Source: Promethearchaeota archaeon | Lineage (GTDB): Archaea; Asgardarchaeota; Hermodarchaeia; Hermodarchaeales; Hermodarchaeaceae | NCBI GenBank assembly: GCA_048939245.1 | Contig: JBHLPR010000028.1 | Span: 1-27,873, forward strand | Length of the DNA: 27,873 nt | Direction: 5' to 3' | In this document: piece by piece, positions 8,124 through 17,930 of the stretch | Layout of the letters: each line of letters starts with the position of its first letter | Numbering within the stretch: position 1 is the first letter of the stretch | Made by a program: the position numbers and the translations under genes | Notes under the pieces: generated by a model | Seen by the model: only the letters and a program-made list of their open reading frames with translations | Told to the model about the DNA's origin: nothing | The model's database searches: none

Positions 8124-8301
8124 TACATAACAGTAGAAGAATCCAATTCAGGATAAAACCAACATCTCAAGAAAGATGTCAAGTCAAGACTGACCGGAGG
8201 AGATTTTAAAGTTTGTCCTTCCCTCGACAGACACCAAAACAATACAACTTTAAGAAACATAATGTGAAATCCTACCCAAGAGCAAATAACGGAGTCTTTC
8301 G

Positions 8302-8646
8302 ATGTCAACTGATCCCTTTATCCGAACTCCAGCCGTGTACACCGACATAGGTCAAATCACATCCAACTCTGCCGGTCGGCGCGTTCGTGTAATGGGATTT
8401 GTCGTTGATGTCCAAGATAACACAGGGTTTACCCTCAGCGATGACACCGGTCGAGTAATGGTGGTTACCGAACAGCCCCCCACGATTCAAACCTTTGTGA
8501 GAGTGTTTGGAACAATCGCAATCTCTCCGGAGGGTCAACCACTGCTCCGCGCTGAAATAATGCAAGATCTTGCTGCACTTGATAAACAGTTATTTAAGCG
8601 TGTACAGAAAATAGTCCAAGCCGCTCCCCGTGGGAGGAATTCCTAG
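8302..8646 (+). CDS. Single OB-fold protein, RPA small-subunit (RPA3/RPA14)-like
   Basis: RTPA...RVRVMGFVV...LSDDTGRV...FVRVFG...LRAEIMQDL plus a C-terminal helix. Stop abuts the PCNA start. Confidence 0.72.
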   Translation: MSTDPFIRTPAVYTDIGQITSNSAGRRVRVMGFVVDVQDNTGFTLSDDTGRVMVVTEQPPTIQTFVRVFGTIAISPEGQPLLRAEIMQDLAALDKQLFKRVQKIVQAAPRGRNS

Positions 8647-17644: not shown

Positions 17645-17658
17645 GACAAAGTTAAAAC
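17645..17658 (+). promoter_or_regulatory. Putative BRE/TATA promoter of the tRNA-Leu gene
   Basis: GACAAAG-TTAAAA implies a start near 17680 and a leader of about 50 nt. Confidence 0.45.
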
Positions 17659-17740
17659 GCACAGAAGTTAATCATTGCACCAAACCATATGCGGGGGACC
17701 CTTCCGAAGGGGTCTTTGCCGCCATACCGGTGGCGGGGGT

Positions 17741-17761
17741 ATCTACGTGTGTAGACCCCAA
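17741..17761 (+). other. tRNA intron 1, position 8/9 (21 nt)
   Basis: Strict BHB: outer TGGC/GCCA, central GGGG/CCCC, bulges GT^A and AA^A, inner TCTAC/GTAGA. Confidence 0.88.
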
Positions 17762-17786
17762 AGCCAAGCCTGGTTAACGGCGCAGG

Positions 17787-17816
17787 AGTCACCCGTACCA
17801 ACGGGTTGACGGTGTC
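17787..17816 (+). other. tRNA intron 2, position 30/31 (30 nt)
   Basis: Relaxed BHB: central CGCA/GGTG (3 of 4 pairs), bulges GG^A and TC^A, strong inner hairpin GTCA-CCCGT/ACGGG-T-TGAC. A 31/32 register gives the same spliced product. Confidence 0.78.
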
Positions 17817-17823
17817 ACTCAAG

Positions 17824-17844
17824 ATTTAACCAGGTTTATGAGAC
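17824..17844 (+). other. tRNA intron 3, canonical position 37/38 (21 nt)
   Basis: Central CTCA/TGAG, bulges AG^A and AC^A; outer helix is the anticodon stem. Confidence 0.9.
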
Positions 17845-17875
17845 ATCCTGTCCGGCAGCGGTTCGAGGGTTCGAA

Positions 17876-17902
17876 AGATCCGCGCACTGCGAGCTCCGAA
17901 AT
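17876..17902 (+). other. tRNA intron 4, position 59/60 (27 nt)
   Basis: Outer GAGGG/CCCTC (T stem), central TTCG/CGAA, bulges AA^A and AT^T, inner GA/TC. Confidence 0.9.
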
Positions 17903-17930
17903 TCCCTCCCCCCGCACCACTTCAGCATCG

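Follow-up and report, generated by a model that had tools for sequence, protein, structure and literature searches.

Architecture of the tRNA-Leu(CAA) gene

The window, by which we mean the whole analyzed stretch of 27,873 nt, carries on its forward strand a gene for tRNA-Leu(CAA) (17733-17919, 187 nt, with G1 at 17733 and CCA encoded). It is flanked by a gene for the glycine-cleavage H-protein and by an unannotated open reading frame; an STT3-type gene lies in the neighborhood. Four introns interrupt the gene and leave exons at 17733-17740, 17762-17786, 17817-17823, 17845-17875 and 17903-17919. Removal of all four yields an 88-nt class II tRNA-Leu with anticodon CAA, for which ARAGORN reports the full cloverleaf. 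Intronic sequence makes up 99 of the 187 nt, and no tRNA was called on the unspliced DNA by ARAGORN, with or without its intron mode, or by Rfam. No other tRNA-Leu(CAA) candidate was seen in the assembly, which is 88% complete. ARAGORN does call an intron-bearing tRNA-Leu(caa) at G000:C62:10247-10354, with a 5' end and D arm unlike the 5' end shared by the Leu genes, and the call probably misassigns an intron-bearing gene of some other type.

Automatic intron assignment, in which subsets of BHB-like candidates were removed and the remainder was passed to ARAGORN, proved too permissive, giving many solutions per gene. It also missed the four-intron solution for tRNA-Leu(CAA), because the motif at 30/31 is relaxed. 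Intron boundaries were set instead by the conservation of exons and introns among relatives. The first intron (17741-17761, 21 nt) lies between U8 and A9. The second (17787-17816, 30 nt) was read from the sequence as a variable block between invariant exons and placed at 30/31, a 31/32 placement giving an identical product; its motif has three central pairs out of four and a strong inner helix. The third (17824-17844, 21 nt) occupies the canonical 37/38 position, with nucleotides 32-35 as a strand of the central helix. The fourth (17876-17902, 27 nt) is at 59/60, where the T stem serves as outer helix and nucleotides 54-57 enter the central helix.

The earlier note on this DNA had claimed a strict bulge-helix-bulge around the first intron, built in part from leader nucleotides -2 and -1 and from acceptor nucleotides 3-6. 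Motif inspection and alignment place an hBHBh' splice motif at 17731-17766, with every part located and both of these borrowed strands borne out. The outer helix pairs 17731-17734 (leader -2/-1 and G1-C2) with 17763-17766 (G10-A13), and the central helix pairs 17735-17738 (G3-G6) with the four intron C's at 17756-17759. Two bulges of 3 nt each, 17739-17741 and 17760-17762, lie on opposite strands. The inner helix, of 5 bp, joins 17742-17746 to 17751-17755 and closes a loop at 17747-17750. Helices and bulges follow the same order as at 37/38 and 59/60 of this gene, where the outer helices are the anticodon stem and the T stem respectively. The rule of cutting after the second bulge base therefore yields U8|A9, and a cut at this point in each bulge restores exactly the junction that had been proposed.

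The insert has the bulges, the 4-bp central helix, the flanking helices and the restored tRNA of an archaeal BHB intron. It does not belong to the canonical 37/38 class, as its junction is U8|A9 and the gene has a separate intron at 37/38. Counting both strands, the 2.5-Mb genome contains 1,773 strict motifs of this type, a density of about 0.35 per kb of strand; they are thus not rare by chance, so that the case is built on placement, on comparison with relatives and on an intron-less ortholog rather than on the motif by itself. Taking these together, we consider it close to certain that the 21-nt insert is a genuine archaeal BHB-type tRNA intron at the junction of acceptor and D stems.

Conservation, loss and recurrence of the 8/9 intron

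A DNA search recovered the tRNA-Leu(CAA) gene in each of the 14 further genomes of the genus and also in 4 from a sister genus. The 8/9 intron is present in 17 of these relatives, spanning both genera, and reaches 33 nt in the sister genus. Together with the window's own copy, these 17 gave 18 intron-bearing copies for an alignment of the motif, in which 97.9% of the cells expected to pair do so, against 22-49% when the partners are slid. The central helix is fully paired in 18/18 copies and varies solely in that G-C becomes G-U through changes in the intron strand, as one would predict where the acceptor stem fixes the opposite strand. Compensatory changes are found at two pairs of the inner helix (8 cells among the 18 copies), which varies from 5 to 7 bp. 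The outer helix has 4 bp in the window copy and 3 bp where leader nucleotide -2 is C. Across the 16 full-length intron-bearing relatives and the window copy, column identity is 97.6-100% in exons and 75-81% in introns.

One ortholog, L014, is without the 8/9 insert (G002:C12, minus strand, around locus position 1680-1737). Its sequence runs continuously through U8-A9 and keeps the other three introns. It is also without a 42-nt segment of the leader, and the 5' terminus of its tRNA occupies the position held elsewhere by a leader element, described below, that copies the acceptor strand. The body of the gene is 97-100% identical to two intron-bearing relatives, and the loss of the intron is therefore recent. 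The promoter type upstream of L014 is unlike that of its closest relatives, a difference that suggests recombination. Alternatively, L014 could have arisen by the copying of a precursor whose 5' end had been matured and whose 8/9 intron had been spliced out. The joint loss of intron and leader segment gives a natural handle on how such introns disappear.

The 8/9 site is not unique to tRNA-Leu(CAA); at least two genes of the genome, and probably three, are interrupted there. In tRNA-Leu(UAA) (C59:13664-13774) the only intron is at 8/9, and removal of its 23 nt leaves a perfect tRNA. The same intron was present in tRNA-Leu(UAA) of all family members checked, and in the sister genus it is just 14-16 nt long. 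The shortest examples, of 14 nt, are found at G015:C35:29250-29283 and G016:C45:3984-4017 (loci L087 and L088) and have an inner helix of about 2 bp. An 8/9 intron of this length is close to the smallest motif that still shows two bulges. The third gene (G000:C78, minus strand, 8183-8337) has three introns, among them a 30-nt insert at the 8/9 site, and reads as tRNA-His(GUG) in one of several ARAGORN solutions; it is probably a tRNA-His(GUG) with an 8/9 intron. Position -1 of the candidate is T and position 73 is A, which means that G-1 is not encoded, and no homolog of Thg1 was found in the 88%-complete assembly.

A loose scan of the genome for 8/9 motifs returned 1,394 matches and was replaced by a search that used the acceptor 3' strand, the CCA and the T arm as anchors. 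Looking for the same site in other Asgard genomes had been proposed as a check, and we did so with a sequence pattern of the Leu intron across 400 genomes. Matches came from 19 of these, namely all 18 family relatives and the source genome, and the site is thus found throughout the family. There were no control matches and none in the other 381 Asgard genomes, the pattern being sequence-specific and blind to 8/9 introns in other tRNAs.

A leader copy of the acceptor strand and a proposed order of processing

The leader of tRNA-Leu(CAA) contains, 42 nt upstream of G1 on the same strand, a seven-base element identical to G1-G7 (17691-17697), which we refer to as the leader copy or 'decoy'. Both the copy and the real 5' strand have the acceptor 3' strand (nucleotides 66-72, 17909-17915) as a partner. 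A hairpin follows directly (17697-17714, stem 17697-17701 with 17710-17714); it is predicted in all partial and full transcripts, and relatives preserve it despite base changes, namely one compensatory exchange of a pair and shifts from A-U to G-U. Minimum-energy folds contain a second leader hairpin (17717-17735, 17731-17735 with 17717-17721), which can hold leader -2 to G3 and competes with the outer BHB helix. Further upstream, an A/T-rich TATA-like box at 17649-17660 is conserved in the ortholog alignment and is the probable promoter. It lies about 36 nt from the copy and at the same distance from the real 5' end in the intron-less ortholog, and this constant spacing makes it very probable that the copy is transcribed. 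Transcription would probably start about 10 nt before 17691. We also considered the leader as a second, 42-nt intron; the candidates had three of four central pairs and no flanking helices, and were rejected.

The copy is invariant in 18/18 intron-bearing tRNA-Leu(CAA) copies, against a mean identity of 58% in the 12 columns upstream of it. Similarly, the tRNA-Leu(UAA) genes, including that of the source genome, have an exact copy at about -42 in 13 of 14 cases and a 6/7 match in the remaining one. The leaders of the two Leu genes look homologous, and we count these genes as one lineage. The candidate His gene has its own copy at -12, again with a 6/7 match. Requiring at least 6 of 7 matching bases within 70 nt upstream, we surveyed 41 tRNA gene candidates of the genome; all three genes interrupted at 8/9 have a copy, as do 3 of the 38 others (Fisher p = 0.0019), an association that amounts to two independent lineages, the Leu paralogs with their homologous leaders and the His gene on one ARAGORN solution. 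In two of the three copy-positive genes without an 8/9 intron, the match is the 3' end of a neighboring tRNA gene. The element in tRNA-Leu(CAA) thus repeats the gene's own acceptor 5' strand within the leader, is conserved and can pair with the 3' strand. A copy of the short first exon is also the form that the scar of an insertion or duplication would take.

Folding predictions favor pairing of the copy with the 3' strand. For 17684-17922 the minimum lies at -98.7 kcal/mol, in a fold where all seven bases of the copy pair with 17909-17915. Forcing the real acceptor stem gives -90.4 kcal/mol, 8.3 above the minimum, and forcing the strict splice motif gives -93.6 kcal/mol, with the copy remaining on the 3' strand. 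Minimum-energy folds of four out of four precursors (Leu(CAA), Leu(UAA), His and the sister genus) pair the copy with this strand. The minimum prefers a register of the motif shifted by one G, in which G4-G7 are paired, and the strict motif lies 2-5 kcal/mol higher; for partial transcripts, no more than about 2 kcal/mol separates the strict motif from the minimum. With all introns removed, the copy is still favored over the real strand by 3.5 kcal/mol, so that the final strand exchange must be driven by tertiary structure or RNase P, both outside the model. When the copy was replaced in silico, the real acceptor stem was regained in two of the four precursors, and in both Leu precursors of the source genus the fate of the real strand was unchanged.

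Because the motif takes up the 5' strands of both the acceptor and the D stem, it excludes these native stems, and the intron would be cut from a conformer that is not a cloverleaf. The motif would present its two 3-nt bulges to the predicted (alpha-beta)2 endonuclease, which would cut after U8 and before A9, and an RNA ligase would then join U8 to A9 as in the established pathway. The acceptor stem, being all G-C, would otherwise compete for the real 5' strand. We propose that, as soon as the 3' strand has been transcribed, the leader copy of G1-G7 pairs with it and leaves the real strand unoccupied. Once splicing has made the real strand continuous with the D arm, this strand would displace the copy from the 3' strand, and RNase P would presumably remove the leader together with the copy. 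A putative helper in splicing is the likeliest reading of the copy.

That splicing precedes formation of the acceptor stem, as the earlier note had argued, follows from the sequence, in which G3-G6 are unable to pair with two partners at once. The accompanying claim that splicing has to precede RNase P cleavage was too strong as an obligation, since a 2-bp outer helix would remain. Splicing endonucleases of broad specificity accept relaxed motifs. Splicing followed by RNase P cleavage would nevertheless be the likeliest order, because the helper-like copy sits in the leader that RNase P removes. The earlier interpretation therefore held on every point of anatomy and gave way on this strict order.

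The explanation as a whole, a real BHB intron at 8/9 with the leader copy occupying the 3' strand during splicing, is in our judgment quite probable. A broader form of it would have the copy act as a cis-acting device: genes whose first intron borrows the acceptor 5' strand would encode a stand-in for that strand in their leader, which would form only a weak hairpin until the 3' strand appears, hold that strand while the endonuclease acts on a precursor misfolded by design, and be discarded by RNase P. On this broader form we are evenly divided. If true, it would fix the order as splicing, strand exchange and 5' maturation, and would explain introns in a part of the tRNA thought to be closed to them.

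We weighed three other explanations. The one given most weight accepts the intron and takes the leader copy as a scar, left when the 8-nt first exon was duplicated at the entry of the intron or of an intron cassette, with co-transcriptional cutting that involves no helper and takes place well before the 3' strand, 170 nt downstream, has been made. Transcription completes the motif 150 nt ahead of the 3' strand, and the motif lies near the energy minimum in partial transcripts, which fits such a course, as does the lack of effect on the real strand when the copy is removed in silico from both Leu precursors of the source genus. The 5' end of the intron-less ortholog, located at the position of the copy, is likewise expected for an ancestral 5' end or a direct repeat. 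A scar should decay, however, and these seven bases are invariant in two genera next to 12 upstream columns with a mean identity of 58%; the adjoining hairpin keeps its pairing through base changes, and the unrelated candidate His gene has a matching copy of its own. On balance we regard a scar as rather unlikely.

The remaining two explanations dispense with the 21-nt intron. One takes the copy as the true first exon, with a single 63-nt intron (17699-17761) removed by way of the same four C's. A relaxed motif for this exact excision does exist, with a 4-bp central and a 2-bp outer helix, but it is without an inner helix, and the strict 21-nt motif is far better and conserved. The 63-nt excision would moreover leave A8 in this gene, and C8 in that of the sister genus, in place of the near-universal U8, and we find this reading scarcely credible. 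The other, in which the insert is retained, would make the gene a decaying pseudogene or a tRNA with an extra 21-nt hairpin between U8 and A9, in keeping with its not being called by standard finders. Against it stand exons conserved at 97.6-100% over two genera while all four inserts drift, a splice motif maintained through compensatory changes, and an 88%-complete assembly in which no second tRNA-Leu(CAA) candidate was seen. Retention is thus very improbable, and excision of the 8/9 intron with the copy as helper is the reading that we carry forward.

Relation to known tRNA introns and the processing enzymes

The persistence of tRNA introns is thought to be limited to sites at which the neighboring tRNA sequence is able to build the splice motif. 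A motif drawn from acceptor and D-stem strands implies that a precursor without any tRNA fold can be spliced, and widens the positions allowed. If the leader copy works as proposed, it would be a simple built-in RNA chaperone that orders tRNA maturation.

In the accessible text of the reviews, intron sites are listed from 20/21 through 59/60, and 3/4 is singled out as extreme (Sugahara 2008, cited in PMC4090602). Neither an 8/9 entry nor an account of a leader copy was found in the accessible literature, a body that does not include the primary intron catalogues. Among non-canonical introns, those of Crenarchaeota (Thermoproteales and others) share the motif, the cutting rule, the broad-specificity (alpha-beta)2 kind of endonuclease and the presence of several introns per gene. 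They differ from the present case in the host, here an uncultured Asgard archaeon of the Hermodarchaeota type, in the 8/9 site and in the conserved leader copy of the acceptor strand, the last of which is not described in reviews. The extreme intron at 3/4 of the acceptor stem likewise lies close enough to the 5' end to need flanking sequence for its motif, and tRNAscan-SE 2.0 extends its candidates by 60 nt for such 5'-proximal introns (PMC8450103).

Reviews up to 2021 give three introns per gene as the archaeal maximum, and a 2026 preprint with a census of Asgard introns reports, in its accessible part, up to five, with a few cases at 'acceptor stem and junctions' set aside as 'other'. As far as their accessible parts show, published intron-rich Asgard genomes have introns at BHB boundaries in most tRNA genes, many of them missed by annotators, a picture that the four-intron gene fits. 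For one of three such genomes tabulated in PMC11291895, the accessible entries give called introns that start at least 15 nt from the tRNA start. The published Asgard surveys, again in the parts available, concentrate on sites in the D arm, anticodon and T arm, and no leader element or processing order was found there. Genes of the present kind are missed by ARAGORN, by Rfam and, by report, by tRNAscan-SE, with the consequence that Asgard genomes seem short of essential tRNAs. In our hands the finders missed both Leu(CAA) and Leu(UAA) and mis-called the candidate His gene.

Split and permuted tRNAs, known from Nanoarchaeum equitans, Caldivirga, Thermofilum and Cyanidioschyzon merolae, offer another parallel, in that leaders and trailers, lying outside the mature tRNA, likewise pair with the tRNA or its partner to build or permit the motif, and their ends are processed by RNase P after splicing (PMC4033280, PMC3978253, PMC4390854). 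In contrast to these, the gene described here is a single transcript in normal order, and its extra strand is proposed to occupy the competing 3' strand rather than to form the motif. Pre-tRNAs of C. merolae also resemble it in having several BHB motifs per precursor, whose stability and position determine the order in which they are processed. RT-PCR demonstrated this order in a eukaryote, whereas ours is inferred, and no 8/9 or acceptor-stem intron was reported there (PMC3728597).

The genome encodes two EndA genes, on C90 and C59. The 186-aa product is catalytic and alpha-like; it matches the catalytic alpha subunits of crenarchaeal heterotetramers and is closest to that of Aeropyrum pernix (3P1Z chain B, E = 2.6e-44). 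The 199-aa product is divergent, shows no catalytic His when aligned and has matches to structural subunits too, that of A. pernix among them. From their sequences, the pair is a predicted (alpha-beta)2-type arrangement, the type of endonuclease linked to non-canonical introns (PMC5829648, PMC4033280). An RNase P RNA is present as well (167.5 bits). The gene of the beta-like EndA (G000:C59:11969-12229) lies inside a tRNA gene cluster, about 1.4 kb from tRNA-Leu(UAA).
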